A DNA stretch of 64,000 bases from an uncultured Candidatus Saccharibacteria bacterium (GCA_964645245.1 CAZYBS010000002.1:18161-82160), one strand, 5' to 3'; positions 1,172-19,873 are shown, numbered from the stretch's first letter. Notes: generated by a model from the letters alone, not told the origin. A program made the numbers and translations.

Positions 1172-1214
1172 AATCTTATTCTAGTATTTTGCAAAAGACT
1201 GAAATAATAAAAAC

Positions 1215-2894: not shown

Positions 2895-2968
2895 AGTAAA
2901 GAAATAAATTTGTTGTGTGTTATAATTATAAAGTCGAAAATTATTAATTTAATTTTATAAATAATTTC

Positions 2969-3445: not shown

Positions 3446-3499
3446 GAAAAATACATTTACGAAGTTAAATAAAAAATCCTTGACACAAATAAGGATTTT

Positions 3500-4018: not shown

Positions 4019-4138
4019 GCTTATAGCCTATCATATATACTCTCATTATACAAGTTTTTCGTGGTCGCAAATTAAATGTTAATTATTAATTTAACCTTAT
4101 GCCGCCTATGCTAAAGCTATGGCGAGCCAAAGAAATAT

Positions 4139-6049
4139 ATGAGCAAAATTATAGGAATAGATTTGGGTACGACAAATTCGGCTGTTGCCGTGATTGAAGG
4201 GGGTGCACCAAAGATTGTTGAAAATGTGGAAGGCAATCGCACTACCCCTTCAGTAGTTTCGGTTGCTAAAAATGGAGACCGGCTGGTGGGCTTACTGGCC
4301 AAGAGGCAAGCGGTGACAAACCCGGAAAATACGGTTTATGGCATTAAGCGTTTTATGGGCCATAATTTTGATGATGCCGAAGTACAGAAAGATTTGAAAA
4401 ATGCGTCGTTCAAGGTTCAGAAATCCGCAAACGGCGGAGTAGAGGTGAAAATTGGTGATAAATGGATGCGCCCGGAAGAAGTTTCCGCGATGATTTTAGG
4501 AAAAATAAAAGGGGATGTAGAAGCAAAACTGGGAGAAAAGATTACCGAAGCAGTCATCACTGTGCCGGCCTATTTCAATGATGCGCAAAGAAAAGCCACC
4601 AAAGACGCCGGAGCGATTGCCGGACTAGACGTAAAACGCATCATTAACGAACCCACGGCAGCTGCTCTTGCTTACGGCTTTAATAAAAAGAAAAACGAAA
4701 AAATAGTGGTGTATGATTTTGGCGGGGGAACTTTTGATGTCTCTATTCTGGAGATTGGAGATGATGTAGTAGAAGTTAAATCCACGGACGGGGACAGCCA
4801 CTTAGGGGGCCGTGATATTGACCATAAAATCATAAACTTCATTGCGGAAGAATTTAAAAAAACTTCCGGTGTAGATGTACGCAAAGACAAGCTGGCCCTG
4901 CAGCGTCTGGACGAAGCGGCCGAGAAAGCCAAGATAGAGCTTTCAACTGCGGTTGAAACAGAAGTCAATATTCCGTTTATTACTTCTACCGCGGCCGGCC
5001 CTCAACATTTGCTTTTGAAAATGACTCGCGCTCAATTGGAATCCATTGCCGACGAGTATATTGCCCGTGCCGTAGAAATTACCAAGCGCGCGATGGCCGC
5101 TTCCGGTTTTAAAATTGAAGACATGAATGAAGTGATAATGGTCGGCGGACAGACCCGCATGCCGAAAATTGTGGAAGAAGTGAAAAAGATTTTTAATAAG
5201 ACTCCAAACTTATCCATCAACCCTGACGAAGTCGTGGCGCTCGGCGCGGCGGTGCAGGCTGGCGTATTGCAGGGGGATGTGCGCGACGTTCTCTTGCTTG
5301 ATGTCATACCGCTTTCACTTGGTATTGAAACATTGGGCGGAGTGGCTACTAAATTAATTGAAAGAAATACGACTATTCCATCCTCTAAGTCTCAAATATT
5401 CTCAACCGCGGCTGATAACCAGACTTCAGTGGAAATCCATATTGTGCAAGGGGAGCGTCCGATGGCATCTGACAATAAATCTCTTGGCAGGTTTATTCTA
5501 GACGGCGTGCCACCAGCGCCTCGCGGCATGCCGCAGATTGAGGTGGTCTTTGATGTGGATGCGAATGGAATTTTGAATGTGACGGCGAAAGATAAAGCTT
5601 CCGGTAAAACCCAGTCAATACGGATAGAAGCGAGCTCCGGATTAAAAGAAGAAGATATTAAGAAGATGCAAGCAGATGCAGAACTTCACGCCGAAGAAGA
5701 TAAAAAGAAAAAAGAAGTTGTAGATATAAAGAATACGGCGGAAATGATTATTTACACTGCCGAAAAAGCGCTCAAAGACAATGAAGCAAAAATCCCGGCA
5801 GAATTAAAAGACAGCGTCAATGCCAAAATATCTGCGCTCAAAACTGCCAAGGACGGCACTGACTCTGATGCAATTAAAAAAGCTACAGAAGAACTTTCTG
5901 CCGAAATGTCCAAAATAGGGGAAGCTATGGCTAAGGCCGGAGCAGACAACCCTTCGGCAAGCTCAGGACAGGCCCCCGAAGAACAAAACCCAGAAGTAAA
6001 AGATGCGGAGTTTAAGGAAAAGAAAAACGGGGAAGAGCCTAAATCCTAA
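4139..6049 (+). CDS. dnaK: Molecular chaperone DnaK (Hsp70)
   Basis: Motifs [27 protein letters not shown] and IVQGER are present across the full 636 aa. Confidence 0.97.
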
Positions 6050-6054
6050 TAAAT

Positions 6055-6996
6055 ATGAAAAATAATTTAATAAAGAAGAAAAAAGTTTTCATTTTCCTTT
6101 TTATTATTTTGAGTTTATTTTACGTGAATAGGTTTTCTTATGCGCAAACAACTTTTATTGAAGTTCGAAATCAAACTAAAGACAACACCCAGCGTATACA
6201 AGATATTGAAGACAAGATGCTAGATCTTAAGGATAACTATAGATTACTTTATGATGGGGCTAAAAATCAAAATGATCAACTAGGTAATCTGATTTCTTAT
6301 TCAGGGTATATTTTGGCTATTTTGGGTATTATTCTTGCTGCATATATAAATAGTCAGTATAAAAAAATTAAAGAGTTGAAAGACATTGTTGAAACTACTA
6401 AAGAGTACATTGATAAAGATAATAAAAAATTATATGAAAATATAACAAGAGACGAGACACTAAAATTACTTAAGAGATTGAAAGAAGTTCCAGAAGATAT
6501 TACAAATATTTATCACTTATTGTTTTCGCGAGATTTATTAGAAGAAGATTATATATCCCTTAAAGAACAATATTTAAAAATCAAAAATGACAACTCTCAA
6601 AGAGAGGCGAAAGATATTTATATTATGTTATTAATGCAACATTTCCCATATCAGTCCCTAAAAGATTCAGAATTAAAGACCGAAGTAATTTCTAAAATAG
6701 ACTTAGATAGCTTAAATAGTATGTTTAGTAGAGATATTAAAAATTTTTTTGTTGAAACATTAAAATATTTAAAAGAATTTGGTATTGGACATGAGCAAGA
6801 AAAGACAATTATAAAAAATTTATTCTATTTCTATTCAAAGTCCCATTTCCAAGCTAATGTTGAACTAAATAATTACATCAAAGAATCAGTTGTAAAATCT
6901 AGTCTAAATGTTTTAGATATTCACAGTGTGGCGAAAGAACAAGCTCCCACAGATTCAACATATACAAATTGGTTAAATTCTATTTTCTCTTCCTAA
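6055..6996 (+). CDS. Hypothetical membrane-anchored coiled-coil protein (extremely AT-rich gene)
   Basis: N-terminal hydrophobic segment, a second TM near aa 80-100, and Lys/Glu/Asn-rich low complexity. Its composition is clearly lower in GC than dnaK. Confidence 0.45.
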   Translation: MKNNLIKKKKVFIFLFIILSLFYVNRFSYAQTTFIEVRNQTKDNTQRIQDIEDKMLDLKDNYRLLYDGAKNQNDQLGNLISYSGYILAILGIILAAYINSQYKKIKELKDIVETTKEYIDKDNKKLYENITRDETLKLLKRLKEVPEDITNIYHLLFSRDLLEEDYISLKEQYLKIKNDNSQREAKDIYIMLLMQHFPYQSLKDSELKTEVISKIDLDSLNSMFSRDIKNFFVETLKYLKEFGIGHEQEKTIIKNLFYFYSKSHFQANVELNNYIKESVVKSSLNVLDIHSVAKEQAPTDSTYTNWLNSIFSS

Positions 6997-7035
6997 AGCT
7001 TTTAGTTTTGGCTATTTTTTGATATAATTTTATTC

Positions 7036-7482
7036 ATGGTTGAATACAAAAAAAGTTCTGCGGTATTAGTTTTTAATGATAAAGGTGAGCTTGCGTTACA
7101 GCTACGTGCTGCGAACGATAGCTCATTTCCTTCTCATTGGGATTTTTCGGCAGGTGGTGGAATTGATGAAGGAGAAGATAATAAATATTCTGCTGAAAGG
7201 GAACTAAAAGAAGAACTCGGTATTGATGCAGAAGTAGAATTTATAATTGAAGAGCATTATACATATCCAGCTTGGAATCCATCCGTGAAAAGGGAAGTAG
7301 ATCTTTTCATTTACAAAACTTTTCACAATGGACCATTTAATCCAGATCTCAAAGAAATTGAGAAAGTGGAGTTTTTTGCACTTGATACAATTAAAAAAAT
7401 GATTAAATCCAGTCAGAAATTTCATCCGGAATTTGTTCTATCATGGAATAAAGGAATTATTTCTCAAGCCCTTATAAATTAA
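7036..7482 (+). CDS. NUDIX hydrolase
   Basis: Perfect Nudix box GGGIDEGEDNKYSAERELKEELGI (GX5EX7REUXEEXGU). Confidence 0.85.
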   Translation: MVEYKKSSAVLVFNDKGELALQLRAANDSSFPSHWDFSAGGGIDEGEDNKYSAERELKEELGIDAEVEFIIEEHYTYPAWNPSVKREVDLFIYKTFHNGPFNPDLKEIEKVEFFALDTIKKMIKSSQKFHPEFVLSWNKGIISQALIN

Positions 7483-7596
7483 GGGCTTTTTGCTTGACTT
7501 TTAACATAAAATGTGCTATACTTGTACCGTTATCAGAATTGAGTTTCTGGTAGCCTCTACGGATGTTTCGTAGAGATTGTACATTGAAAGGTTCGT

Positions 7597-7743
7597 ATGA
7601 AAAAAAGGATTGCGTTTTTTGTCGTGATCGTGGCACCGAGCGTGGTAACCATGGTGCTCAGCGGAGTTCATCCTGGGTGGATCACGGCCAATGTGCTGTG
7701 GTTTGTCCTGTTGGCTGCCGTGCACAAACTCCGGCAAGACTAG
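7597..7743 (+). CDS. Possible small hydrophobic protein (48 aa), not in the ORF track
   Basis: ATG is preceded by gaaagg. The translation MKKRIAFFVVIVAPSVVTMVLSGVHPGWITANVLWFVLLAAVHKLRQD has two hydrophobic stretches. An imperfect hairpin follows at ~7836-7872. It lies in a locally GC-richer patch that overlaps two mutually overlapping listed ORFs. Confidence 0.25.
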   Translation: MKKRIAFFVVIVAPSVVTMVLSGVHPGWITANVLWFVLLAAVHKLRQD

Positions 7744-7964
7744 CTTGCAACACAAGAGCGCAAACTCTTGATAAAAAATCTTGCCGCCAGCGTTCGAGAG
7801 TTTACAGGCGTTAAAGTCAGAACTCTCAATATCATCATCTCTCACTCATTAGAACCTTCGGGTTTTCTAATAGTGAGCAGTACAATGAAGGTTTTTGTCT
7901 AAATCTTTATTCCTCTGCTCATAACTCCTTTAATTTTTGCGAATTTCTGCTATAATTTACCCAT

Positions 7965-9941
7965 ATGGACTTGCCGGAAATACCCATAAATAAAGAAATC
8001 ACCTATCTCGGAATTACTACTTACAGGGACAAAAACCAGCTTTTTGGCATCAAGCGCAAAGACAGGCGCCAGCATGTTTATCTGTTGGGAAAGTCCGGTA
8101 CCGGTAAATCAGTGCTGATGTTCAACATGATTATCCAGAATATCCAAAATGGCGACGGGGTCTGCATGGTTGACCCGCATGGAGAAAATGTTGAAGCAAT
8201 TCTCTCCGCCATCCCGCCGCACCGCATGAAGGATGTGGTTTATTTCAATCCGGCCGATGCTGATTATCATATCGGCTTTAATGTATTGGAGCTGATTGAC
8301 CCGCAATACAAGCACTTGGTGGCTTCGGGACTGATGGGCATTTTTACTAAAATTTGGGCCAATGCCTGGAGCGCCCGAATGGAATATATTTTAAATAATG
8401 CAATTCTGGCTTTGCTGGATACGCCGGGCACGACGCTCCTGGGGATTCCTCGAATGCTGGTGGACAAAGATTATCGCCAGAAAATAATTTCCAATTTAAA
8501 GGACCCGGTCATCAAGGCTTTCTGGGTGCACGAATATGAAGCTTGGCAAGATAAATTCCGTAATGAAGCGATCGCCCCGATTCAGAATAAAGTCGGGCAG
8601 TTTCTTTCCACTTCCATCATCCGCAATGTCGTCGGTCAGTCCAAGAGCACGATTAATATCTTTGACATGATGAATGAGAGGAAAATTTTTCTGGTGAATG
8701 TTTCCAAGGGGCGCATCGGAGAGGACAACTCCGGCCTTTTGGGCGGCATGATTATTACCAAAATCCAGCTGGCCGCCATGGAACGCGTGCGTATTCCGGA
8801 AGAGTCCCGCACCGACTTTTATCTTTATGTGGATGAATTTCAGAATTTCGTGACCGATGCTTTTGCCGGCATTTTATCGGAGGCCAGAAAATACAGATTG
8901 AACCTGACGGTGGCTCACCAATATACCGCTCAACTTATTTCCGACAAAAGTTCCGCTGTACGCGATGCCGTCTTCGGTAATGTCGGTACAATGATTGTCT
9001 TTCGAACAGGCGCCGATGACGCGGAATTTCTGGAAAAAGAATTTGATCCGGAATTTACTCCGCAGGATATAGTGAACTTGCCCAACTATAAAGCTTATTT
9101 GAAATTAATGATCGATGGCGTAACATCCCGTCCTTTTTCCGCCAAAACTTTGCCACCGCTGGTAAAATCCGGCAATAAAGAGATTGAAGAAGAGGTAATA
9201 AAATCTTCTCGTATATTGTATTGTCGGCCGAGAGAGGTTGTGGAAAGGGAAATCAATGACTGGAGCGGAATGTCGCTGGGTGATGAAAATGCCCCAGGCG
9301 GTAGTATAGAAAAATTTCCAGCTGTCTGTTCAAGTTGCAAGAAAGAGACTACAGTTCCCTTCAAGCCGGAAAAAGGGCGTCCAGTTTACTGTAAAGAATG
9401 CATAGCCAGGATAAAGTCTGGTGAGATAAAAGTAGAAAAAGGGTCAGAAAATCAAATTAAACATGATGAAACTAAATTTTTCAAGCCGTTGGCTGATTTG
9501 GGTATAGAGTTTGAACAAAAAGATAGGGGTAGAATTAAAGAAGCAGAAAGATATCCCGAGAGAATTGATAAACATGGAATCATAGGGGCCGTGAAAAAAG
9601 TTTTTACCAAAAGTGAGATGCCAGTCCCAACCAAAGTCGAGATTCCTAAAAAACCCAAGGAAAATTTAGCATTAAGGGAAGTTTTAAATAAAATAAGTGA
9701 ACCAGTTTCGCTTGATACTTTAAAAAATAAGACCAAAGAAACTATATCCTCTAAGGATCGTGCCGCTAGCCCGGAAGATATGAGTAAGTTAAAAGACCTA
9801 ATTTTAGAAAAAGTTCCCGAAGCTAAAGAGGAGGAAAAGGAGGAGAAAGCCCCGACGCCCGCAGGGGTCGGGGTCCCGACTTCTAAGAGCGTCGGGACAA
9901 AAGAAGTGCCGGAAGACGTTTTGAGAAAAGTTTTGGAATAA
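7965..9941 (+). CDS. Soluble VirD4/TraG/TraD-superfamily P-loop ATPase (AAA_10 / T4CP-like) with a C-terminal Zn ribbon and Lys/Glu-rich tail, paralog A
   Basis: Walker A LLGKSGTGKS, DPHGE, Walker B FYLYVDEFQNF, and ARKYRLNLTVAHQYTAQL (TraG-D_C-like). There are no N-terminal TM helices. Residues ~455-478 read CSSCKKETTVPFKPEKGRPVYCKEC. Confidence 0.7.
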   Translation: MDLPEIPINKEITYLGITTYRDKNQLFGIKRKDRRQHVYLLGKSGTGKSVLMFNMIIQNIQNGDGVCMVDPHGENVEAILSAIPPHRMKDVVYFNPADADYHIGFNVLELIDPQYKHLVASGLMGIFTKIWANAWSARMEYILNNAILALLDTPGTTLLGIPRMLVDKDYRQKIISNLKDPVIKAFWVHEYEAWQDKFRNEAIAPIQNKVGQFLSTSIIRNVVGQSKSTINIFDMMNERKIFLVNVSKGRIGEDNSGLLGGMIITKIQLAAMERVRIPEESRTDFYLYVDEFQNFVTDAFAGILSEARKYRLNLTVAHQYTAQLISDKSSAVRDAVFGNVGTMIVFRTGADDAEFLEKEFDPEFTPQDIVNLPNYKAYLKLMIDGVTSRPFSAKTLPPLVKSGNKEIEEEVIKSSRILYCRPREVVEREINDWSGMSLGDENAPGGSIEKFPAVCSSCKKETTVPFKPEKGRPVYCKECIARIKSGEIKVEKGSENQIKHDETKFFKPLADLGIEFEQKDRGRIKEAERYPERIDKHGIIGAVKKVFTKSEMPVPTKVEIPKKPKENLALREVLNKISEPVSLDTLKNKTKETISSKDRAASPEDMSKLKDLILEKVPEAKEEEKEEKAPTPAGVGVPTSKSVGTKEVPEDVLRKVLE

Positions 9942-10010
9942 AATGCAAAGTGAAATTAGAAATTGCCCCGCCTTCGCTAAAGCTACGGACGGGCAGGCAA
10001 AATTGCAAAT

Positions 10011-11777
10011 ATGGTGAAAGATAAAGAAAAGAAAATATGCCAGAACTGCCGTGGTGAATTTACTATAGAGCCCGAGGATTTTAATTTTTATGAAAAGATA
10101 AAGGTACCGTCACCGACTTTTTGCCCGCTTTGCCGAGCGCAGAGGCGAATGGCTTTTAGAAATGAGCGGAAACTTTTTAAAGTTAAAAATCATTTTACTG
10201 GTCAAGATATTTTCTCTACATATCCGGAAGAAAGCGGAAGAAAAATTATTACCCGGGAAGAGTGGTTTGGGGACAGTTGGGATGCGATGAAGCATGGAAG
10301 TGACTATGATTTTTCAAAGCCTTTTTTAAAACAACTAAAAGAACTTGATAAAGAGGTGCTAGTTTTTAATTATAATGTTCTTAGGATGGTTAATAGTCCA
10401 TATGCATTTAACGCCTCAGGTTTAAAAAATTGTTACCTTATTGTCAACTCTAGTTATTCAGAAGATTGCATGTATGGTAATGCAATAGATTTTTGCAAAG
10501 ACTCAATAGATAACTCACATATAACTCACTCTGAGCGATGCCATGAATCTTTTTGGTTGGAAAATTGTTATCAATGTTATTTTACAATAATGTCAGCAGA
10601 TTCTCGCAATCTGTATTTTTGTAGAGATTGTGTTGGCTGTAACGATTGTTTCGGTTGTGCAAATTTACGCAAGAAATCTTATTGCATCTTTAATAAGCAA
10701 TATTCTAAACTAGATTATCAGGAAGAGCTTAAAAAAATGAATCTTCAAACTATTTCAGGCTTATCAAAGGCACACAAAAAGGCAAGAGAATTCTGGAATA
10801 CCCAACCAATTAAATGTCATCAAGGATTAAAAAATTTAAATTCAACAGGCTCCTACGTAACAAATTGTAAAAATGTGAATGATAGCTATTTAATCAGAGA
10901 AAGTGAAAATATGCGTTATTGCCAATATCAACAAATACCGGGGAACAAAGATTGTTATGATGTAACTAATTGGGGAGAGTACACAGAACTCAGTTATGAA
11001 ACAGTAGAATGTGGTGATAATTCTTATTGCGATAAGTTTTCTAAAAATTGTTGGCCTGCCTGCAGGAATAATGAATATTGCATAAACCTTTTCAGCTCAT
11101 CCGATTGTTTTGGTTGCGTAGGGCTAAAGAAAAAACAATATTGCATTTTGAATAAACAATACACTAAGGAAGAATATGAAAAAATGGTGGAAAAAATTAA
11201 GCAGCATATGGATAAAATGCCTTATGTTGACTTACAAGGCCTCGTTTATAAATACGGGGAATTTTTTCCAATAGAATTTTCTCCTTTTGGATATAATAAT
11301 ACACTTGCTATGCAACATTTCCCGTTAAGTAAAGAAGAGGTAATGAAAAAAAATTATGGATGGGTGGAAGTACCTCGCGGTGAGTATAAAATAACTAAAA
11401 AAGCGGAAGATTTACCAGATTCAATTGAAAATGTTGCAAATGAAATCCTAAAAGAAGTTTTTGAATGCGATAGTTGTAAAAATCCTTATAGAATATTAGA
11501 AAATGAATTTATATTTTATAAAAAAGAAAAACTGCCGTTACCCCGCTTGTGTAGTGAATGTAGGCACGAGCGGCGCATTAAGGACAGACTTAAATTGTTT
11601 TTATACGAAAGGACTTGCATGTGCGCAGGTATTATAGACCAGACCAATACGTATAAAAATACTATTTCCCATATTCATAAAGATTTTCCTTGTGGAGAAA
11701 GATTTAAAACCGGATATGCTCCCGGCCGACTGGAGATAGTTTACTGCGAAAAGTGTTACCAGCAAGAAGTTTATTAA
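10011..11777 (+). CDS. Cysteine-rich multi-CxxC protein, paralog 3
   Basis: 588 aa with the conserved N-terminus CQNCRGEFTIEPEDFNFYEKIKVPSPTFCPLCRAQRRM and C-terminus ...YCEKCYQQEVY. Confidence 0.8.
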   Translation: MVKDKEKKICQNCRGEFTIEPEDFNFYEKIKVPSPTFCPLCRAQRRMAFRNERKLFKVKNHFTGQDIFSTYPEESGRKIITREEWFGDSWDAMKHGSDYDFSKPFLKQLKELDKEVLVFNYNVLRMVNSPYAFNASGLKNCYLIVNSSYSEDCMYGNAIDFCKDSIDNSHITHSERCHESFWLENCYQCYFTIMSADSRNLYFCRDCVGCNDCFGCANLRKKSYCIFNKQYSKLDYQEELKKMNLQTISGLSKAHKKAREFWNTQPIKCHQGLKNLNSTGSYVTNCKNVNDSYLIRESENMRYCQYQQIPGNKDCYDVTNWGEYTELSYETVECGDNSYCDKFSKNCWPACRNNEYCINLFSSSDCFGCVGLKKKQYCILNKQYTKEEYEKMVEKIKQHMDKMPYVDLQGLVYKYGEFFPIEFSPFGYNNTLAMQHFPLSKEEVMKKNYGWVEVPRGEYKITKKAEDLPDSIENVANEILKEVFECDSCKNPYRILENEFIFYKKEKLPLPRLCSECRHERRIKDRLKLFLYERTCMCAGIIDQTNTYKNTISHIHKDFPCGERFKTGYAPGRLEIVYCEKCYQQEVY

Positions 11778-11819
11778 GTGATATCAATATCATCATACTA
11801 GTGTGCTAGTATAAAAATT

Positions 11820-13544
11820 ATGAACAGTGAAAATAAAAATTGTCAGAATTGTAAAAAAGACTTCATCATCGAGCCGGAGGATTTTAATTTTTATGAGAAA
11901 ATAAAAGTTCCGCCACCGACTTTCTGTCCGGAGTGCCGGCTTCAAAGGCGCATGGCTTGGCGCAACGAGCGCACCCTTCATAGAAATAAGTGCGCCAAAA
12001 CAGGCAAAAGTTTGATTAGCTGCTTTTCTGCCGATTCGCCATTTACCGTTTACGATAGGGATATTTGGTGGGGAGACAAGTGGGATCCTACAGCATATGG
12101 AGTGGAATATGATTTCTCAAAGTCTTTCTTTAGCCAGTTCCGCAAACTTTTAGAAAAAGTTCCTCATCCAAATCTTTTTATAGGAAAATGCGTTAATACT
12201 TTCTATGGAAATTATATTGGTGAATTTAGAAATTCATACCTTGTATCAGCATCTTGGGTCGGAGATAACATAGCTTACGCATCACGTTGCAATAACTGCA
12301 AAGATTCTGTGGATATGTTTACCGTCAATAACTGTGAATTTTCTTATGAAGATGTTTCTTCTTCTAAGTGTTACGAAACTTTTTTCTCGCACAACGCTGA
12401 TTCCTGTACCAGTTCTTATTTTCTTTATGATTGTAAAAATTGCATAAATTGTTTTGGTTGCACATCACTTCGTAATAAATCTAACTGTATGTGGAACAAG
12501 CAACTTACCAAAGAAGAGTATGATAAAAAGTTTAAGGACTTAGATATTGGAAGTTTCGAAAATTTTAAAAAAATACAACAAGAATTCGAGGGACTTAAAT
12601 TAAAAGCTATTAGAAGATTTGCTAATATTATAAATTCTACTAATGTTTCTGGGGATGATATATTTCATTCTACTAATTCTCACTATTGTTTTGCTATATC
12701 AGATGATGTGAAGGATTGTAAGTTCATAATTAATTCTCTTGATCGTCTGTATAATAGTTATGATGGATACGGAACTGGTGCCAATACGGAATTGGTTTAT
12801 GAGGGAATGGACTCTGGCGTGAACGGATCCAGACAGTTATTCGTGCTTACAGTCTGGGAGTGCATGAATACAGAATATTCAATTAATTGTCATGGGTGCA
12901 ATAATATTTTTGGTTGCGCAGGCCTCCGTAAGAAAGATTATTGCATTTTTAACAAACAATATTCAAAAGAGGAATATGAAAAAATCAGGGCTCAGATAAT
13001 TGGACAGATGAATAAAATGCCATACGTTGACAAAAAAGGTCGTTCGTATAAATACGGGGAGTATTTCCCAGTGGAAATTTCTCCATTTGGATATAATGAA
13101 ACTGTATCGCAAGACTACTTCCCGCTTTCTAGAGAAGAAATTTTGAAGAACGGCTATAACTGGGTTGAACGAGAGAAACCAGAATATAAAACCACTTGTA
13201 CATCTAAAGATTTACCAGATCACATTAAAGATACTGATGAAAGTATTTTAAGTTTAGTCATTGAATGCGAATCCTGTAAAAGACCTTATAAAATTATTGA
13301 AAACGAGTATCTTTTTTTGAAAAGATTTAGTCTGCCGATACCACGGAAATGTTTTGAATGTCGCCACCAAGAACGATTTAAAAAGGTTAATCCGCCTAAA
13401 ATTTATCATAGGCAATGCATGTGCGAAAAAGGAAATCATTCTCATGGAGCAGGGAAGTGTACGGTAGAATTTGAAACATCCTACGCTCCCGACAGGCCTG
13501 AGATTATTTACTGCGAAAAATGTTACCAGCAGGAAGTGTATTAA
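11820..13544 (+). CDS. Cysteine-rich multi-CxxC protein, paralog 4
   Basis: 574 aa with the same N- and C-terminal modules (CQNCKKDFIIEPEDFNFYEKIKVPPPTFCPECRLQRRM ... FETSYAPDRPEIIYCEKCYQQEVY). Confidence 0.8.
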   Translation: MNSENKNCQNCKKDFIIEPEDFNFYEKIKVPPPTFCPECRLQRRMAWRNERTLHRNKCAKTGKSLISCFSADSPFTVYDRDIWWGDKWDPTAYGVEYDFSKSFFSQFRKLLEKVPHPNLFIGKCVNTFYGNYIGEFRNSYLVSASWVGDNIAYASRCNNCKDSVDMFTVNNCEFSYEDVSSSKCYETFFSHNADSCTSSYFLYDCKNCINCFGCTSLRNKSNCMWNKQLTKEEYDKKFKDLDIGSFENFKKIQQEFEGLKLKAIRRFANIINSTNVSGDDIFHSTNSHYCFAISDDVKDCKFIINSLDRLYNSYDGYGTGANTELVYEGMDSGVNGSRQLFVLTVWECMNTEYSINCHGCNNIFGCAGLRKKDYCIFNKQYSKEEYEKIRAQIIGQMNKMPYVDKKGRSYKYGEYFPVEISPFGYNETVSQDYFPLSREEILKNGYNWVEREKPEYKTTCTSKDLPDHIKDTDESILSLVIECESCKRPYKIIENEYLFLKRFSLPIPRKCFECRHQERFKKVNPPKIYHRQCMCEKGNHSHGAGKCTVEFETSYAPDRPEIIYCEKCYQQEVY

Positions 13545-13589
13545 ACACAACATTTTGCAAAATGACAAAATGTTGATAAGATAAATAAC

Positions 13590-13862
13590 ATGAGTTTACC
13601 ATATAAAAAAATCGAAAAAATAGTAAAAGGATTTGCAAATCATAGGCGACTTCAAATATTGGAGCTTCTAAGTAGAGTCCCTAATTTATCAGTTGATGAC
13701 ATATCTCAAAATTTAGATGTTGGATTTTTTACTATTTCAGATCATATACGCAAAGCGACTGATGCGGGATTAATTGAAAAGAAATATAAAGGTCGTTTTG
13801 TGCTTCACAGTCTTACAAAGAGAGGGAGGCATATTTTGTTATTTTGCAAAATGTTTAAATGA
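13590..13862 (+). CDS. ArsR/SmtB-family winged-helix transcriptional regulator
   Basis: 90 aa with HRRLQILELLSRVPNLSVDDISQNLDVGFFTISDHIRKATDAGLI (HTH plus wing). Confidence 0.6.
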   Translation: MSLPYKKIEKIVKGFANHRRLQILELLSRVPNLSVDDISQNLDVGFFTISDHIRKATDAGLIEKKYKGRFVLHSLTKRGRHILLFCKMFK

Positions 13863-13871
13863 GAAATTAAT

Positions 13872-14849
13872 GTGAAAAGTGAAACGAAAACTCTAAAAAA
13901 TAAAAAAGAATTTTTCATTTTCCCGACCTTACCATTTCATTTTGACGGCACATTTCACAAACCATCACATTTTCCAGATAAACTTAGTGATTGGCAAACT
14001 GGTAAGCATTGGCAAACCATTCGTCTTGGTAAAAGACTTTTCGGATTAAAAATTGAAAATAAAGGAGAGAAGCAAAAACCAAAAATAAAAGTTTCAGTTT
14101 TTTATAATAACACGATTTCTGGCAAGGAATTAGAAGATATTAAGCAGGAAATCATCTGGCGTTTTGATTTAAACGCTGATTTAAAAGAATTTAATAAACT
14201 AGCCAGAAATGACAAGCGTTTTTATCCGATTTTCAAAAAATGGCTAGGGATGCGAAACTCAAGTGCACATAATTTATATGAACTTCTGATCATTGCAGTG
14301 CTTTTGCAAAATGCAACAGTTAGACGAACAGTCCAAATGATAGGCACGCTTCTTGATAGTTATGGTACTAGGTTGAAATTTGATAAAAAAGAAATTTTTG
14401 CCATTTGGCTTCCGGAAAGATTGAAAAATGTTTCAGAGCAGGATTTAAGGAATTTAAAAATAGGTTATCGGGCAAAATTTATCAAGCGTTTATCAAAAGA
14501 TTTTGCCGAAAGTCAAGTTGATGAGCAGAAACTCAGATTACTTAATCAAGAAAGTGCAAAGAAAGAATTACTAAAACTTTTTGGAGTTGGACCGGAAACT
14601 GCCCGTATATTGCTTTTTGAAGTTTGTCACCAATACAATACTTTTGACCATATAGCACCATGGCAACAAAAAATATATTCTCGATTGTTTTATAAAAAGC
14701 CGCTAGTCTCTGTTAATAAAATTAGAGATGATATTAAAAAACAGTATGGCGAATACTCTATGCTGGCGGTTCACTATATCTGGGAAGATATTTTTTGGAG
14801 AAGAAAAAATGAAAGAATTGACTGGCTGGAAAGAGAAATCAGGCTTTAA
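13872..14849 (+). CDS. HhH-GPD superfamily DNA glycosylase (AlkA-like)
   Basis: Helix-hairpin-helix motif LLKLFGVGPETARILLFEV followed by an Asp (NTFDHIAPW), and an N-terminal AlkA-like region. Confidence 0.5.
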   Translation: MKSETKTLKNKKEFFIFPTLPFHFDGTFHKPSHFPDKLSDWQTGKHWQTIRLGKRLFGLKIENKGEKQKPKIKVSVFYNNTISGKELEDIKQEIIWRFDLNADLKEFNKLARNDKRFYPIFKKWLGMRNSSAHNLYELLIIAVLLQNATVRRTVQMIGTLLDSYGTRLKFDKKEIFAIWLPERLKNVSEQDLRNLKIGYRAKFIKRLSKDFAESQVDEQKLRLLNQESAKKELLKLFGVGPETARILLFEVCHQYNTFDHIAPWQQKIYSRLFYKKPLVSVNKIRDDIKKQYGEYSMLAVHYIWEDIFWRRKNERIDWLEREIRL

Positions 14850-14904
14850 TTATAAGCTAAATAACTGTTGGAAAATAATCTAAAATCGTGCTAAAATAGC
14901 CCAT

Positions 14905-16407
14905 ATGCCAAAACCGGGTCGAGTGCAAATAATCAAATATGGTCCGCCGCCGCCGGAATTGCCGGTTTTTGGAAAGATAGACCCGACCGAGGTGTCTTTC
15001 ATCGGACGTACAAATTACGTTGCCGCATTAGAGGAGAAAAAGTTTATATTCGGCATCAAGCGCATAGACCGCCGCCGGCATCTTTATATTGTCGGCAAGT
15101 CCGGCGTTGGTAAAACCAAACTTCTGGAACTTCTTATCCGTCAAGATATAACCTATGGCCATGGATTATGCCTGATTGACCCGCACGGCGATGTGATGGA
15201 GGCAATACTGGACTATATACCCAAGGAACGCATAGAAGATGTTTGCATTATCAACCCGCCCGACGTTGATTTTCCGGCCTCTTTCAACCCATTGGCGAAT
15301 GTTGATCCGATGTTTAAGTTTCAATTGACTCAAGGGTTGATTGAAGTTTTCCAAAAACAATTCGGAGCCAACTGGACGCCCAGGCTGGAGCACGTTTTCC
15401 GCTTTACCTGTTTGGCCTTGCTGGATTATCCGCACGCGACGATGCGCGGCATGATTTCCATGCTGACCGACCGAAATTACCGGCAGAAGGTGGTGGAGTA
15501 TATTACCGACGATATGGTAAAAAGATTCTTCGCTATTGAATTCGCCGACTGGTCGGAGAAGTTTGACACCGATGCCATTATCCCGCTAGTTAACAAGCTC
15601 GGGCAATTCCTCTCCGACCCGCTCTTGCGCAATATCTTCGGCCAAAAGCAGAACAAGATAGACATCAGTAAGCTGATGAACGAGCAAAAGATTATTCTAA
15701 TTAATATCTCCAAAGGCCGTCTGGGAGAAGAAAATTCCTCTTTTCTTGGTTCTATCTTTCTGACTAAAATAAAACAAGCGGGTATGGAGCGCGCGGCTAT
15801 ACCAGAAAAAGACCGTACGGACTTTTATCTATACGTGGATGAGTTTCACAATGTCGTTACTCAGACCTTTGAAAACATTTTATCCGAGGCCAGAAAATAT
15901 GCTTTAAGTTTAACTATGGCCCATCAATATGTTGGTCAGGTTATTCCCCGAGTTCACCAAGCGGTACTTGGTAATTGCGGTAGTGTGATTACTTTTCGTA
16001 TTAGTGGTGAAGACGCAGTTAAAATGAAACCGGAATTTGCGCCTTTGTTTGACGTGAAGGATATGATCAATCTGGCTGTCGCGGAATTTTATATAAAAAT
16101 GACCATTGACGGTGAGTCCTATGACCCATTTTCGGCTGAAACACTTCGAGTTCTTCCCCCGACTCATCCCTCATACAGAGAAGAAATTATGGCGGCCTCT
16201 CGCCGGAAATATTCAATACCAAAAGACGACGCGGCCAAGCTTATTGCCGAGGAAGAGGCGACAATCATCCGAAGCGCCGAAGAGAAGGCAATTATCGAGA
16301 GCAAAGCTAAAAGAAAAGCAAAAGAAAAAGGAGAAGATAATGGCGAAGAAGATGAAAAAGAAAAACCTAAAGCAAAAGCTTCACAAGAAGCCGAACCCAT
16401 GATATAA
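14905..16407 (+). CDS. Soluble VirD4/TraG/TraD-superfamily P-loop ATPase, paralog B
   Basis: Walker A IVGKSGVGKT, DPHGD, Walker B FYLYVDEFHNV, and ARKYALSLTMAHQYVGQV. It is colinear with paralog A over the first ~400 aa and has a Lys/Glu-rich C-terminal tail. Confidence 0.7.
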   Translation: MPKPGRVQIIKYGPPPPELPVFGKIDPTEVSFIGRTNYVAALEEKKFIFGIKRIDRRRHLYIVGKSGVGKTKLLELLIRQDITYGHGLCLIDPHGDVMEAILDYIPKERIEDVCIINPPDVDFPASFNPLANVDPMFKFQLTQGLIEVFQKQFGANWTPRLEHVFRFTCLALLDYPHATMRGMISMLTDRNYRQKVVEYITDDMVKRFFAIEFADWSEKFDTDAIIPLVNKLGQFLSDPLLRNIFGQKQNKIDISKLMNEQKIILINISKGRLGEENSSFLGSIFLTKIKQAGMERAAIPEKDRTDFYLYVDEFHNVVTQTFENILSEARKYALSLTMAHQYVGQVIPRVHQAVLGNCGSVITFRISGEDAVKMKPEFAPLFDVKDMINLAVAEFYIKMTIDGESYDPFSAETLRVLPPTHPSYREEIMAASRRKYSIPKDDAAKLIAEEEATIIRSAEEKAIIESKAKRKAKEKGEDNGEEDEKEKPKAKASQEAEPMI

Positions 16408-16414
16408 TACTTGT

Positions 16415-17521
16415 ATGTCAAAAGATTACTACAATATATTAGGTGTTAACAAAACTTCATCCAAAGAGGAAATTAAAAAAGCCTTTTATAAGTTAGCGCA
16501 TAAATATCATCCGGACAAAAAAGGCGGCAATGAAACGAAGTTTAAGCAAGTGAATGAAGCTTACCAAGTTCTTTCAGATGACTCCAAGCGTTCAAAATAC
16601 GATCAATATGGATCTGCTTTTGAAAATATGGGGCAGCAGAGAGGTGGAGGATATCAAGGGGGTGGATTTGAAGGCTTTGACTTCAGTAATTTTTCTGGGG
16701 GTTTTCAAAACGGCAATGCGGATTTTGATTTTGGAAATCTTAACGATATTTTTAGCGATTTCTTCACAGGGGGTATGGGTGGAGGCAGAAGAGAGACAAG
16801 ACGTGGTCGGGATATTTCGACCGAAGTCCAAATTTCTTTTTCTGATTCTATTTTTGGCACTAATAGGAAAATTTTAATTACTAAAACTTCAAATTGTCTT
16901 ACCTGCAATAGCTCTGGCGCAAAAACTGGGTCTAAAATGGAAACTTGCAAGCACTGCAATGGTCAAGGTAAAATACATGAAACAAAAAGGTCATTTCTTG
17001 GCACCATTTCCAGTACAAAAGTTTGCGAAGTATGCTTGGGTAGCGGTGAGGTACCAAAAGAAATTTGTGATAAATGCAAAGGCAAAGGAGTATTGCGCCG
17101 GGAAGAAGAAGTCTCAATTGTTATTCCCGCTGGCATACGTGATGGAGAGATGATTCGGATGTCGGGCTACGGTGAGGCAATATCCAAAGGAACAGCGGGA
17201 GACCTCTATATAAAAATAAATGTGGCGCCACATGGGATATTTAAGCGAGACGGGCACGACTTAGTCATGAATTTGAATTTGAAGCTCTCCGATGCGCTTT
17301 TGGGAACAGAATATCCCATCCAAACTTTGGACGGAGAAATTAAAGTTACTATTCCAGAGGGTGTGGCCATAAATGAAATTCTTCGCGTACGGGGCAAGGG
17401 TGTGCCAATTTCCAAAAATAAACGCGGGGACCTTTTAATCAAGCTTAATATCAAACTTCCGGGAAAATTATCCCGTAAATCTCGCGAACTAATGGAGGAG
17501 CTCAAAAAAGAGGGGATATAA
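16415..17521 (+). CDS. dnaJ: Chaperone DnaJ (Hsp40)
   Basis: J-domain with HPDKK (YYNILGVNKTSSKEEIKKAFYKLAHKYHPDKK), a Gly/Phe-rich linker, and four CxxCxGxG zinc-finger repeats. Confidence 0.95.
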   Translation: MSKDYYNILGVNKTSSKEEIKKAFYKLAHKYHPDKKGGNETKFKQVNEAYQVLSDDSKRSKYDQYGSAFENMGQQRGGGYQGGGFEGFDFSNFSGGFQNGNADFDFGNLNDIFSDFFTGGMGGGRRETRRGRDISTEVQISFSDSIFGTNRKILITKTSNCLTCNSSGAKTGSKMETCKHCNGQGKIHETKRSFLGTISSTKVCEVCLGSGEVPKEICDKCKGKGVLRREEEVSIVIPAGIRDGEMIRMSGYGEAISKGTAGDLYIKINVAPHGIFKRDGHDLVMNLNLKLSDALLGTEYPIQTLDGEIKVTIPEGVAINEILRVRGKGVPISKNKRGDLLIKLNIKLPGKLSRKSRELMEELKKEGI

Positions 17522-17524
17522 TCC

Positions 17525-18130
17525 ATGTTCCCTGAATATATAATTTATATTGCGATTCCTGTCAGCTTGGCAGCCTATTTTTATTATTTTAAAAATATTT
17601 TTTACGGGCAGACCAAGCCGAATTTAGTTTCTTGGTTTCTTTGGATGTTAGCTCCATTTATCGGAGTATTTTTCCAGCTTAAAGCTGGAGGAGGTCTTGC
17701 TGCCTTACCGGTATTTTTAGCCGGTTTCGGGCCTCTTTTGGTAATACTTGCTTCTCTTTGGAATAAAAATGCTTACTGGAAAATTACCAGATTGGATATA
17801 ACTTGCGGGATACTGGCAATGCTCGCCTTAGTATTTTATATTCTGACTCATAATTTAGGAATATCAGTCCTTTTTGCTATATCAAGCGATGGTTTAGCAG
17901 CTGTCCCGACACTTGTAAAATCTTGGAAATTTCCAGAAACTGAAACAGCGACAGTTTATCTGGCAGGAATTTTCAGCAATACTTTAGGATTACTCATTAT
18001 AAAAAATTGGATTTTTTCCATTTATTCTTTCGGTATTTATTTTATAGTAATGAATATAGCGATAGTATTTTGCATATACCGCAAAAAGATTTTTAAAAGT
18101 GAGCAAGGGGAGTCCTTGCTCAAGTTTTAG
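17525..18130 (+). CDS. Hypothetical integral membrane protein
   Basis: 201 aa with 5-6 predicted TM helices. No recognisable motif. Confidence 0.45.
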   Translation: MFPEYIIYIAIPVSLAAYFYYFKNIFYGQTKPNLVSWFLWMLAPFIGVFFQLKAGGGLAALPVFLAGFGPLLVILASLWNKNAYWKITRLDITCGILAMLALVFYILTHNLGISVLFAISSDGLAAVPTLVKSWKFPETETATVYLAGIFSNTLGLLIIKNWIFSIYSFGIYFIVMNIAIVFCIYRKKIFKSEQGESLLKF

Positions 18131-18135
18131 TAAGC

Positions 18136-18163
18136 TTGTATTTTATCATTAATATGTTATAAT
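18136..18163 (+). promoter_or_regulatory. Candidate sigma70-type promoter TTGTAT-16-TATAAT for the GC-rich gene
   Basis: TTGTAT at 18136-18141 and TATAAT at 18158-18163. Confidence 0.3.
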
Positions 18164-18200
18164 ACTAGAGTAATACGTTCTTTAAAATCTTTACGAAATT

Positions 18201-18244
18201 GCCACAGCAGAAAGTATCTTAATTTTAGGATTCTTTCTGCTGTG
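18201..18244 (+). promoter_or_regulatory. Perfect 14-bp inverted repeat (GCCACAGCAGAAAG / CTTTCTGCTGTGGC) in the leader of the GC-rich gene; a GCCACATGTGGC palindrome follows at ~18271-18282
   Basis: Read directly from the sequence. No U-tract follows, so it is more likely an operator or RNA structure than a terminator. Confidence 0.4.
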
Positions 18245-18305
18245 GCGAAACCCATGTTGGGCTAGCTATACAGCATGCCACATGTGGCAGAAAGGAGGTC
18301 GAGAC

Positions 18306-18929
18306 ATGTCTCGATACCTCGAAGGCACCACTCACCAACTGTGTGAACAACTGCAGGGGGCTGGCTTTAAAGAGAACGAAGTACATGTTCTCGGAGACAG
18401 ATCCCGCCTGGATCGTATTCTTGCCGAAATTCGTACTGGTGTAGTAATCGGTTCGTCGCCGGACTTGGACTCAATCAATCCAGTTCTGGTCGTGGACCGC
18501 ACTAAGGCGCCGGTTTACCCAAGGGCCATGACTGGTGGGCTCGTGCGACCCGATCTTGAGCTCACCGGGCCTGATCGTTTCAGCATCAACCATACGTTGA
18601 CTTTTCCCTTTACGACGTCCGAACCTGCGCTGGGGCAAGAGGTCTACGATAGGTGGATGAAGGACGATACGCCTCAAAGATATATCGACGGGTACGTCTC
18701 CCTGATCGACCTGATCGCGATTCGGGCCAGGGGTCCGATCTTTTACCACCTTCATTTTAGCGGAATGAAGCTGGTCGCCATGAAGTCAGCCGGTAAGTTC
18801 CACGAGAACGGGTCCGAGTTGGTCCGTGTACCATATTTGTACGAGGCAAAGAAATGTGTTCACCGTGGGTGGAGGTGGCTTGGGCACACGTTCACTCAAG
18901 AATACAAAGCGCTTCGTATCGTGACCTAG
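18306..18929 (+). CDS. Hypothetical protein encoded in a GC-rich island (probable start at the second ATG, with AAAGGAGG SD)
   Basis: ORF 18282..18929. The internal ATG at 18306 is preceded by AAAGGAGG-N7. Codon usage is GC-rich, unlike the neighbours. No recognisable family. Confidence 0.55.
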   Translation: MSRYLEGTTHQLCEQLQGAGFKENEVHVLGDRSRLDRILAEIRTGVVIGSSPDLDSINPVLVVDRTKAPVYPRAMTGGLVRPDLELTGPDRFSINHTLTFPFTTSEPALGQEVYDRWMKDDTPQRYIDGYVSLIDLIAIRARGPIFYHLHFSGMKLVAMKSAGKFHENGSELVRVPYLYEAKKCVHRGWRWLGHTFTQEYKALRIVT

Positions 18930-18966
18930 TAGTCTATACTTGTGGGTGTAATAGTTTAAACTCTCA

Positions 18967-19000
18967 GGCCGCGCGGCGTCACTCTGTGACACGCGCGGCC
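18967..19000 (+). terminator. GC-rich hairpin after the island gene (GGCCGCGCG...CGCGCGGCC)
   Basis: 9-bp perfect GC stem extended by GTCAC/GTGAC; only a weak T-tract follows. Confidence 0.4.
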
Positions 19001-19073
19001 TTCTCAATTTAATTAAATCTTTGCCTCGCCCGTAGGTCTATGGCCGAGGGAAATTTTTTGCGCTTTTAAAAAA

Positions 19074-19871
19074 CTATTTTAAAAGAGACCAAACAAGGTA
19101 GCATAAATACAGAAATGCCAGAACTACTAGTAGTTTCCTTAAATATTCCTCTGGGATTTTTTGGACGTGCTTAGTTACGAAGTGCGCACCAATAAAGGTT
19201 CCTACCCATAAAGTTAAAACGTATGGCCAGGCCAAAAGACCAGCAAGCGCAGTCATAATTATAGAAAAAATTGTAGTGGGCACATAAATTATGTTTGTGA
19301 TGCCAATTCCCTCCACCACTTTCATTCTAAGCAAACTAGAATAAGCAATTTTCTGGAAGGTCCCTGCTCCTACACCACTAACATTCGCATAGAGGCCTAA
19401 CCCTAGCATGATACTGCCTATTAAAGGATATTGTTTGCCGTTAATGCGCATCTCTTCTAAATTTCTAGGGGCCTTATTCTTGGACACTAGTATGTGTATT
19501 ACTAGAAGTGAAAGAGCGATGATAAGCAAATAGCTCAAAAGAGTGGCAGAAATTTTTGTAAGAAAAATTGTGCCGATAATTCCACCAATTAAAAAAGGTA
19601 AGCCAAGGAGGATGATTAATTTTTTATTACCCCAAATACTTTTTGGTGAGGCACTTACCGCTCCAACGCTTGACCCCAAACACCCCGCAATGTCAGTGGC
19701 AATCACTGTTGGTAATGGTATTCCTAAAAAAAGAAGAGCAAATTGAATTAGAATTCCTCCACCTCCCAAAACTACAGCATATCCCTCAGCGATTATTCCA
19801 GCTAAAAAGATAACTGGGAGATGCCATAAATGGAAAAAAGGTGGAATAAAATTTATAAAAAAGTTATACAT
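19074..19871 (-). CDS. TauE/SafE (DUF81) family membrane exporter
   Basis: 265 aa polytopic protein with the LAGIIAEGYAVVLGGGGILIQFALLFLGIP motif typical of TauE/SafE. Confidence 0.6.
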   Translation of the reverse strand: MYNFFINFIPPFFHLWHLPVIFLAGIIAEGYAVVLGGGGILIQFALLFLGIPLPTVIATDIAGCLGSSVGAVSASPKSIWGNKKLIILLGLPFLIGGIIGTIFLTKISATLLSYLLIIALSLLVIHILVSKNKAPRNLEEMRINGKQYPLIGSIMLGLGLYANVSGVGAGTFQKIAYSSLLRMKVVEGIGITNIIYVPTTIFSIIMTALAGLLAWPYVLTLWVGTFIGAHFVTKHVQKIPEEYLRKLLVVLAFLYLCYLVWSLLK

Positions 19872-19873
19872 TT

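Follow-up and report, generated by a model that had tools for sequence, protein, structure and literature searches.

Why do some 10 kb separate dnaK from dnaJ in the genome of an uncultured bacterium deposited as “Candidatus Saccharibacteria,” and do the genes that fill this interval work together? We addressed this question in a 64,000-nucleotide stretch of that genome (GCA_964645245.1, CAZYBS010000002.1:18161-82160; here, the window), whose best protein matches carry the names “Candidatus Nomurabacteria,” Paceibacterota, or Minisyncoccia and therefore place it among the ultra-small bacteria of the Patescibacteria, or candidate phyla radiation (CPR). The interval is a compact block with all genes on the plus strand, bordered by dnaK (positions 4139 to 6049, +; Pfam HSP70) on the 5′ side and dnaJ (16415 to 17521, +; Pfam DnaJ, DnaJ_C, and DnaJ_CXXCXGXG) on the 3′ side, both borders being conserved in the lineage. 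It encodes two ATPases, A (658 amino acids [aa]; 7965 to 9941, +) and B (500 aa; 14905 to 16407, +), and, between them, two Cys-rich paralogs, Cys3 (588 aa; 10011 to 11777, +) and Cys4 (574 aa; 11820 to 13544, +). An earlier note on this DNA, made from the sequence alone, had given the dnaK and dnaJ coordinates and the compact same-strand gene order, and gene annotation bears them out. It had also spoken of a ~10-kb insertion, which is misleading because the arrangement is found in dozens of species: the dnaK-dnaJ interval is a vertically inherited core neighborhood, ancestral to a clade. Its two ATPases are, to judge by sequence, duplicated and chromosomally fixed descendants of a monoderm-type coupling protein of type IV secretion (T4CP) with intact Walker A, Walker B, Arg, and Gln motifs. 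Our preferred, still tentative, reading is that they make up a motor whose cargo or adaptors are the Cys-rich proteins.

Over 433 aa, ATPases A and B share 45% identity, and both exceed the Pfam gathering scores of TrwB_AAD_bind, T4SS-DNA_transf, TraG-D_C, and DUF87. For the first three of these profiles, ATPase A scores 38.5 bits (cutoff, 20.5; E = 8.4e-10), 28.4 bits (20.1), and 25.7 bits (22) and ATPase B scores 25.7, 25.9, and 22.5 bits, respectively. This is the outcome of a profile comparison that the earlier note had proposed, which also included FtsK_SpoIIIE; neither that profile nor the FtsK gamma domain matches either ATPase at E ≤ 0.01. Both proteins carry the motifs GKSGxGKS/T, DPHGE/D, VDEF, and ARKYxLxLTxAHQY, and the residues of Walker A (G42, K43, G45, G47, and K48), Walker B, ARKY, and AHQY are the same in all A- and B-type homologs. 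In ATPase A, Walker A reads GKSGTGKS (aa 42 to 49; positions 8088 to 8111, +, read from the sequence). It begins at residue 42 in ATPase A and at residue 64 in ATPase B, so that the N-terminal transmembrane (TM) anchor of T4CPs is missing, and neither protein contains a hydrophobic segment (maximum Kyte-Doolittle 19-residue mean, 1.13 for A and 0.95 for B). The description of the pair as paralogous VirD4-type ATPases with these motifs and no N-terminal TM helix was therefore accurate.

The two types differ after the P-loop core. In ATPase A, the core (aa 1 to 440) is followed by a CxxC-x17-CxxC treble-clef zinc finger (aa 450 to 482; positions 9312 to 9410, +), a LADLGIEF motif, and a disordered tail ending in KEVPEDVLRKVLE, for which the A-type consensus is KEVPEDVLRK[IV]LE. 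The finger matches zf_Tbcl_2 (52.5 bits, cutoff 27; E = 4e-14) and TIGR04272 (54.5 bits, cutoff 36; E = 6.7e-15) and is present in 99 of 111 A-type homologs and in none of 76 B-type homologs; a domain of this type binds Zn in small proteins of Methanosarcina mazei (PMC12704099). ATPase B has no zinc finger and ends in an acidic tail with the sequence EPMI, and an EP[ML]I end is found in 57 B-type homologs. An all-alpha domain may lie between Walker A and Walker B, where the TrwB_AAD_bind alignment spans aa 32 to 349 and an AlphaFold2 (AF2) model of ATPase A is helical over aa 113 to 238, but the predicted local distance difference test score (pLDDT) of that model, 48.6, is too low for a comparison of folds. 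TrwB is the only solved relative that we found by sequence.

Where did the N-terminal part of the coupling protein go? Judging from profile alignments, the module lost from the ATPases is the separate single-pass membrane protein DUF8128, encoded just upstream in most related lineages. The phage family phrog_5156 (824 profile positions) aligns with ATPase A at positions 385 to 805 (2.3e-62) and with a CPR DUF8128 protein at positions 79 to 291 (4e-11); it also matches ATPase B (2.4e-53). A single phage family thus spans DUF8128 and the ATPase, which makes it a Rosetta-stone fusion. In hhalign comparisons, a 32-sequence DUF8128 alignment matched the N terminus of Bacillus phage G gp156 with 98.5% probability and SPO1 gp27.4 with 63.8% probability; with the T4CP of an Embleya plasmid there was only a collinear hint. 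The DUF8128 gene is accompanied by a second small membrane protein gene (157 aa) that follows it, and each of the two proteins has one N-terminal TM helix.

The phage proteins of this family (SPO1 gp27.4, phage G gp156, and their CP-51 relative) share the ATPase core and the DUF8128 module with the CPR proteins, gp156 being 28% identical. In contrast to the latter, they are single fused chains without Cys-rich partners. In SPO1, gp27.4 is preceded by an Alp7A-like actin and followed by the Replic_Relax protein gp27.3; in phage G, gp156 adjoins gp155, a VirB4/TraG-type ATPase. Large Bacillus phages (SPO1 gp27.9 to gp27.3, locus L171 of our set; phage G gp155 to gp156, L170) thus present a conjugation-like DNA-handling module in lytic phages.

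The nearest full-length relative that we found is an 812-aa T4CP homolog of an Embleya plasmid (phmmer E down to 8e-69 against the CPR ATPases), encoded in a cluster with PrgI (VirB3), an ATP-binding protein, a replication-relaxation protein, and NlpC/P60. Together with the phage fusion, this match indicates that the CPR ATPase genes are a split, duplicated, and chromosomally fixed offshoot of the monoderm T4CP subfamily. With T4CPs (VirD4, TraG, TrwB, and the monoderm subfamily of actinobacterial and Bacillus plasmids, whose genes adjoin those of replication-relaxation proteins) they share the signature motifs of the P-loop core. They differ from them in having no membrane anchor in the polypeptide, the N-terminal module being separate as DUF8128; in having been duplicated into two conserved types, with a zinc finger gained by A; and in being chromosomal, vertically inherited, and interleaved with Cys-rich genes. 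No homologs of VirB4, PrgI, relaxase, or Replic_Relax were detected in ~160 related CPR loci (80 from species-representative genomes, seeded with an ATPase alignment, and 79 metagenome loci, seeded with a Cys-family alignment, all annotated with hidden Markov models [HMMs] and phmmer), and a whole-window HMM scan, which returned exactly two ATPases and five Cys genes, likewise found no VirB4, PrgI, or replication-relaxation homolog. The association with type IV secretion system (T4SS) or relaxase genes that marks T4CPs is therefore missing in the window and in these loci alike. The earlier note had allowed that the ATPases might be ordinary T4CPs with a T4SS nearby; the window contains neither a T4SS nor a relaxase. 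The NCBIfam T4CP equivalogs give the ATPases only 20 to 50 bits against cutoffs of 250 to 650, the best being SXT_TraD (50.8 bits; cutoff, 366); CD1115 gives 43.3 bits (250) and CedD 25.5 bits (600). The motor, gamma (KOPS-binding), and N-terminal membrane domains that define FtsK/SpoIIIE are missing from both ATPases, and their resemblance to HerA and to MADS systems is confined to generic core matches (DUF87, mad8, and HerA).

Five Cys-rich paralogs lie in the window. They are 559 to 588 aa long with ~6% Cys, so that the earlier description of those between the ATPases as tandem paralogs holds, whereas “giant” does not. The pair reported at the start of the window consists of paralogs indeed (39 to 43% identical to Cys3 and Cys4), but its first open reading frame (ORF) (2 to 1171, +; family HMM E = 8.6e-116) is cut by the window edge, the gene starts upstream, and only its C-terminal 389 aa fall in the window. 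Sequence upstream of the window was read from the 212.6-kb metagenomic source contig (ENA ERZ27284378, k139_459614), on which the full gene encodes 563 aa (L008, 8266 to 9957) and is the middle member of a trio; the third member (559 aa, 6.3% Cys, no TM segment) is at 1215 to 2894 (+; E = 5.7e-218). The gene order on the contig is ribosomal-protein/rpoA operon, grpE, Cys553, Cys563, Cys559, a divergent PaaX-like gene, and dnaK. Where a third ATPase had been suspected, there are thus grpE and a third Cys paralog and no ATPase. A solitary 574-aa paralog (45464 to 47188, +; family HMM), missed earlier, follows scpA-scpB at a distance of 30 kb from the ATPases, and the order scpA-scpB-Cys-mraY recurs in 6 other loci. 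The six Cys paralogs on the source contig and the two ATPases amount to ~14 kb of coding sequence, which makes it unlikely that their role is peripheral.

At E < 1e-5, the Cys family has >6,793 homologs; all are annotated as hypothetical, and those with a named source all come from CPR. An exhaustive search returned 5,122 clusters at 50% identity (2,252 at E ≤ 1e-30); among the best 150 clusters listed, most are 545 to 612 aa long. The family has no match in Pfam, NCBIfam, PADLOC, or PHROG, and a profile search of PDB sequences found no relative; Foldseek comparison with PDB and viral structures retrieved generic zinc ribbons at most. So far, it has been found only in CPR. A phage origin was considered and rejected, as 2.9 million viral contigs contained a single fragment. 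Different genomes keep different subsets of the paralogs, in arrays of up to eight copies.

The Cys-rich proteins have no TM segment and no signal peptide and are predicted to combine zinc fingers (ZnFs) with beta-solenoids. In the AF2 model of Cys4 (pLDDT, 81.6; predicted template modeling score, 0.81), the chain runs through ZnF1, an alpha/beta domain, solenoid 1 with a Cys cap, a helical hairpin, solenoid 2 with a Cys cap, a helix, a second alpha/beta domain, ZnF2, and ZnF3. The solenoids are its least confident part (pLDDT 55 to 68), residues 118 to 226 show a period of ~12 residues, and conserved columns end each solenoid of the family in a C-x2-C-x5-C-x8-C cap. From these columns, a chain probably contains ~5 zinc sites. 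ZnF1 and ZnF2 are homologous (hhalign, 98.6%), and ZnF3 weakly resembles the finger of ATPase A (43.6% probability; E = 2.4e-4); matches of family members to zf_Tbcl (12 of 85) and zf_Tbcl_2 (4 of 85) are all at E > 1e-4. Identity among the window paralogs is highest in ZnF1 (68%) and ZnF3 (57%) and falls to 23 to 36% in the center, and two-thirds of each protein is predicted to be solenoid or alpha/beta domain, not finger. Known beta-solenoid proteins, such as curli CsgA, insect antifreeze proteins, and left-handed beta-helix enzymes, show no sequence relationship to the family, whose predicted solenoids differ in being Cys capped and in having three putative treble-clef zinc fingers on their flanks, an arrangement unmatched in PDB. 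The proteins are near neutral (pI 6.5 to 8.0), with a basic ZnF2 (+5), and a DNA-mimic or DNA-binding reading based on charge was rejected on this ground.

Are the ATPases and the Cys family linked beyond this genome? Two architectures recur. The first, that of the window, reads grpE, Cys(0-3), PaaX(−), dnaK, A, Cys(0-4), B, dnaJ, (Cys), a 201-aa membrane protein, and cysS(−), and is conserved in dozens of species-level genomes; dnaK precedes ATPase A in 31 of the 80 ATPase-seeded loci, and the order ATPase B-dnaJ recurs as well. The second, found in “Candidatus Liptonbacteria,” “Candidatus Staskawiczbacteria,” “Candidatus Niyogibacteria,” and others, runs secD, secF, a sigma70_r4/HARE-HTH protein, DUF8128, the 157-aa membrane protein, and the ATPase pair; Cys(0-5) lie between the two ATPases or next to them. 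In fetched DNA of “Candidatus Wolfebacteria” and “Candidatus Doudnabacteria,” the same secDF flank is followed by one ATPase only and no Cys gene. A Cys gene lies within 10 kb of the ATPases in 42 of the 80 ATPase-seeded loci and directly adjacent in 31; conversely, 17 of the 32 Cys-seeded loci of ≥12 kb contain an ATPase. The earlier note had conceded that the Cys family might never co-occur with such ATPases, yet it does so in many genomes of Paceibacteria/Parcubacteria lineages. Typed pairs show the orders A-Cys-B (35), A-B (13), B-A (12), and B-Cys-A (8), so that Cys genes separate the two ATPases in 43 of 68 pairs (63%). This linkage is far above random placement (binomial nulls, even generous ones, give P < 1e-5), although these P values are only rough, because the loci share ancestry and are not phylogenetically independent. 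The stronger argument is therefore the recurrence of the pairing in different flanking contexts (grpE/dnaK/dnaJ, secDF-sigma-DUF8128, and loci in which neither context was detected) and with either ATPase first.

Two observations on the related loci stand apart from this count. The protein with sigma-70 region 4 and HARE-HTH domains, encoded between secF and DUF8128 upstream of the ATPase module (L006, 5062 to 6093), has equivalents in 24 of the 80 loci. In one staskawiczbacterial locus (L003), a PemK-type toxin gene and two Fic-domain genes are scattered among the ATPase and Cys genes (5768 to 6157, 13444 to 14436, and 17540 to 18415).

The ATPase pair is vertically inherited and more constrained than DnaK. 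When 25 loci of the window architecture were each compared with the window, the median identities were 92% for the A core, 90% for the B core, 87% for DnaK, 79% for DnaJ, 69% for GrpE, and 63% for CysS, and orthologs of ATPase A in other genomes are 75 to 87% identical. Unlike plasmid T4CPs, the pair is thus constrained at the level of housekeeping genes.

Genes of this kind have been counted before. A 2025 survey tallied 5,713 VirD4-type homologs in 2,918 Patescibacteria genomes, ~2 per genome, placed 148 of them near virB4, and could not exclude exaptation of these homologs (Quinonero-Coronel et al. 2025, PMC12102498). With near certainty, ATPases A and B belong to these orphan T4CP homologs; the part of the survey consulted contains no A and B types, no DUF8128 split module, no dnaK/dnaJ or secDF contexts, and no Cys-rich partner family. 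The same source locates the virB4 loci of Paceibacteria near dnaA and dnaN, so that a T4SS may exist elsewhere in the present genome. The “undescribed system” of the earlier note is thus new in part: the ATPases had already been counted, and the literature searched holds no account of two ATPase types A and B, of DUF8128 as their split-off module, of the Cys-rich family, or of the ATPase-Cys linkage. Searches on DUF8128, on CPR cysteine-rich families, and on FtsK in CPR yielded nothing relevant, and those on MADS and mad8 yielded unrelated papers only.

In the mechanism that we tentatively favor, A and B would assemble into a ring, possibly a mixed one, that would work as an ATP-driven motor and be held at the membrane by DUF8128, with the Cys-rich proteins as its dedicated partners, either cargo or cargo adaptors. 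These might be recognized via the conserved N-terminal ZnF module and the invariant C-terminal ...YCEKCYQQEVY end, much as T4CPs and FtsK-like secretion ATPases recognize terminal signals of substrates encoded beside them. The motor might feed the Cys proteins to a distant chromosomal T4SS or might act alone. The flanking grpE/dnaK/dnaJ and secDF genes hint at a role in protein handling. In the type VII secretion system (T7SS) of monoderm bacteria, an EssC/EccC ATPase of the FtsK-HerA superfamily is encoded beside tandem paralogous substrates and recognizes their conserved terminal signal. The likeness lies in logic and not in membership, since the ATPases belong to a different family and are not accompanied by other T7SS components, and since zinc proteins of 570 aa, not WXG100 hairpins, would be the substrates.

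Several points weigh against a motor that handles the Cys-rich proteins. Physical or functional contact between the ATPases and the Cys proteins is itself conjectural, and DUF8128, the supposed tether, was not found by the HMM scan of the window. The AF2 model of ATPase A is too poor for a fold search, as its alignment is shallow and too uniform. Linkage is incomplete: in 25 of the 68 ATPase pairs no Cys gene lies in between, loci L012, L013, L018, L023, and L036 have none within 10 kb, and Cys genes also occur alone or in ATPase-free arrays of up to 8. Gene order is strongly conserved among Paceibacteria genomes, so that inheritance of that order could account for some of the linkage. Zinc-bound, tightly folded proteins make poor translocation substrates, and the Cys orthologs, 70 to 81% identical between species, evolve more slowly than typical effectors. 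Finally, in S. epibionticum the T4CP homolog is reported to be nonessential and the T4SS essential (PMC12102498).

The strongest competing explanation turns the motor toward nucleic acids. The FtsK-HerA/T4CP superfamily consists of DNA pumps, and A and B with DUF8128 could be a T4SS-independent translocase of DNA or nucleoprotein, acting, for example, in chromosome segregation at division or in DNA uptake or processing, with the Cys proteins as relaxosome-like nucleic acid-binding accessories. This is a serious possibility, if a less probable one. The phage and plasmid relatives adjoin replication-relaxation proteins and an Alp7A-type actin, a Cys paralog reproducibly follows the condensin genes scpA-scpB, and ATPase A may have the treble-clef type of finger in common with the Cys proteins, whose ZnF2 is basic. 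Conservation above that of DnaK and the copy number of ~2 per genome across the phylum (PMC12102498) would suit a core process. On the other hand, the ~160 CPR loci lack relaxase and Replic_Relax homologs, the ATPases have no FtsK_SpoIIIE or gamma-domain match, and the Cys proteins are near neutral and mostly solenoid or alpha/beta domain. Nor would a DNA pump account for the uneven distribution, with the ATPases present throughout the phylum and the Cys family in only part of it.

That last disparity, along with the incomplete linkage, speaks for a further account: the ATPase pair and the Cys family may be functionally unrelated core genes caught in an old, slowly decaying gene order, the Cys proteins being, for example, zinc-dependent structural, regulatory, or chaperone-client proteins. 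Synteny is strong in every locus set, and the doudnabacterial loci L088 and L089 have no Cys gene within 10 kb. We regard mere neighborhood as somewhat improbable, because the pairing occurs in unrelated contexts and in both the A..B and B..A orders, Cys genes separate the majority of the pairs, and the enrichment withstands generous nulls; a possibly shared type of zinc finger argues in the same direction.

A more specific version of the motor that handles Cys-rich proteins goes further, and we consider it rather unlikely as a whole: A and B, DUF8128, and the Cys arrays would be a Patescibacteria-specific protein-delivery pathway, in which the Cys proteins travel as cargo through the patescibacterial T4SS or through a translocon distinct from it, are held unfolded by the co-encoded GrpE/DnaK/DnaJ, and fold around zinc only after delivery into or onto the host. 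The Cys-rich proteins, which have no signal peptide, would carry domains of a cytoplasmic type.

An anti-phage defense module built on a HerA/MADS-like ATPase is very improbable. PADLOC does report mad8 (1.1e-14 and 1.8e-11) and weak HerA matches (7e-8 or weaker), which any P-loop core of the FtsK-HerA type would give, and toxin-type PemK and Fic genes are interleaved in the one staskawiczbacterial cluster; the pair, however, consists of vertically inherited core genes more conserved than DnaK, keeps a fixed place among housekeeping genes with no features of a defense island, and has no MADS or HerA partner genes (NurA, Sir2, DUF4297, mad1-7) beside it, nor do the Cys proteins match PADLOC. 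Weakest of all, an ordinary conjugative T4CP on an integrated mobile element that splits dnaK from dnaJ, which the T4CP Pfam matches and a GC content of the Cys and passenger genes below that of their neighbors might suggest, is refuted for this locus by synteny conserved in dozens of species, by the extreme sequence conservation, by the NCBIfam equivalog scores far under their cutoffs, and by the lack of VirB4, relaxase, integrase, and repeats in the window.

Patescibacteria make up a large share of bacterial diversity, live as epibionts, and are the least annotated phylum. Orphan T4CP homologs were already known; their sorting into types A and B, the separation of DUF8128 from them, the Cys-rich family, and its linkage to the ATPases are additions to the literature searched. 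The locus offers several handles: an ATPase pair that evolves more slowly than DnaK, a split module identified via a phage fusion, and a very large, uniform, unannotated partner family with a predicted architecture of five zinc sites and a double solenoid that has no structural relative. It bears on two questions, namely, the cargo of the T4SS, which is essential in the one genetically tractable member of the phylum, and the role of the distant T4CP homologs present in ~2 copies per genome (PMC12102498).

The earlier note counted an AT-rich membrane/coiled-coil protein (313 aa; 6055 to 6996, +), a NUDIX hydrolase (7036 to 7482, +), an ArsR-type winged-helix regulator (13590 to 13862, +), and an AlkA-like glycosylase (13872 to 14849, +) among the members of the block. 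Their order is as given; the first two and the glycosylase, however, have no counterpart in any of the ~160 related loci and are thus passengers. GC content drops to 0.27 to 0.30 at 6001 to 7500, over the membrane protein and NUDIX genes, from ~0.40 to 0.46 around, and this segment, between dnaK and ATPase A, resembles a short piece of DNA acquired within the lineage. The glycosylase does belong to the HhH-GPD group, but it is nearer Ogg than AlkA and stays below curated cutoffs. The small ArsR-type protein (HTH_5, 29.1 bits, cutoff 22, E = 8.9e-7; NF033788, 46.8 bits, below the cutoff of 55) has a single Cys near its C terminus and, by inspection, no canonical metal site, so that it does not qualify as a metalloregulator. 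It is an occasional companion, with homologs beside Cys genes in ~5 loci (L025, L026, L027, L031, and L128). A role of the block in metal homeostasis was accordingly rejected.

The 482-bp gap before ATPase A (7483 to 7964) has a higher GC content than its upstream neighbors, is 68% identical over 477 nucleotides to L026 (8040 to 8512) and partly so to L028, and has an RNA fold z-score of −4.3, with no Rfam match; a search of positions 1 to 20000 found no RNA family. A terminator-like hairpin (7466 to 7488) is followed by a promoter-like TTGACT-17-TATACT (7494 to 7522). The gap also contains a small ORF (7597 to 7746, +) for a conserved 49-aa hydrophobic protein, MKKRIAFFVVIVAPS...HKLRQD, with a conserved hairpin downstream. 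A small membrane protein upstream of ATPase A was rejected as a general anchor, since it occurs in 11% of A-type loci, no more often than in B-type ones.

Between the grpE-proximal Cys trio and dnaK, two ORFs overlap on opposite strands, namely, 2944 to 3456 (−; 170 aa), which is the gene call of the source contig, and 2969 to 3445 (+; 158 aa, Ala rich), which starts with a signal peptide-like segment, MFRKTLVFSGLLLALSLVVAPVSAE..., and may be the true coding frame; no homolog of either occurs in the related loci. The genes at 3500 to 4018 (−) and 23481 to 24002 (+) each specify a small protein with a PaaX_M (Cas2-like) domain. The PaaX_M gene divergent from dnaK and upstream of it is conserved in 22 of 80 related loci, and its product (3500 to 4018) may regulate the chaperone block of this lineage. 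The other large ORFs of the window are housekeeping genes.

At the opposite border, a promoter-like TTCACA-17-TATAAT with an upstream TG (16380 to 16408; 11 of 12 matches, one of the two best in the region) lies inside the end of the ATPase B gene, 7 nucleotides before the dnaJ start, and could give a leaderless or very short-leader dnaJ transcript. Directly after dnaJ, positions 17525 to 18130 encode the 201-aa polytopic membrane protein of the window-type architecture, with ~6 TM segments and no Pfam match, which is conserved in 19 of the 80 ATPase-seeded and 10 of the 79 Cys-seeded loci.

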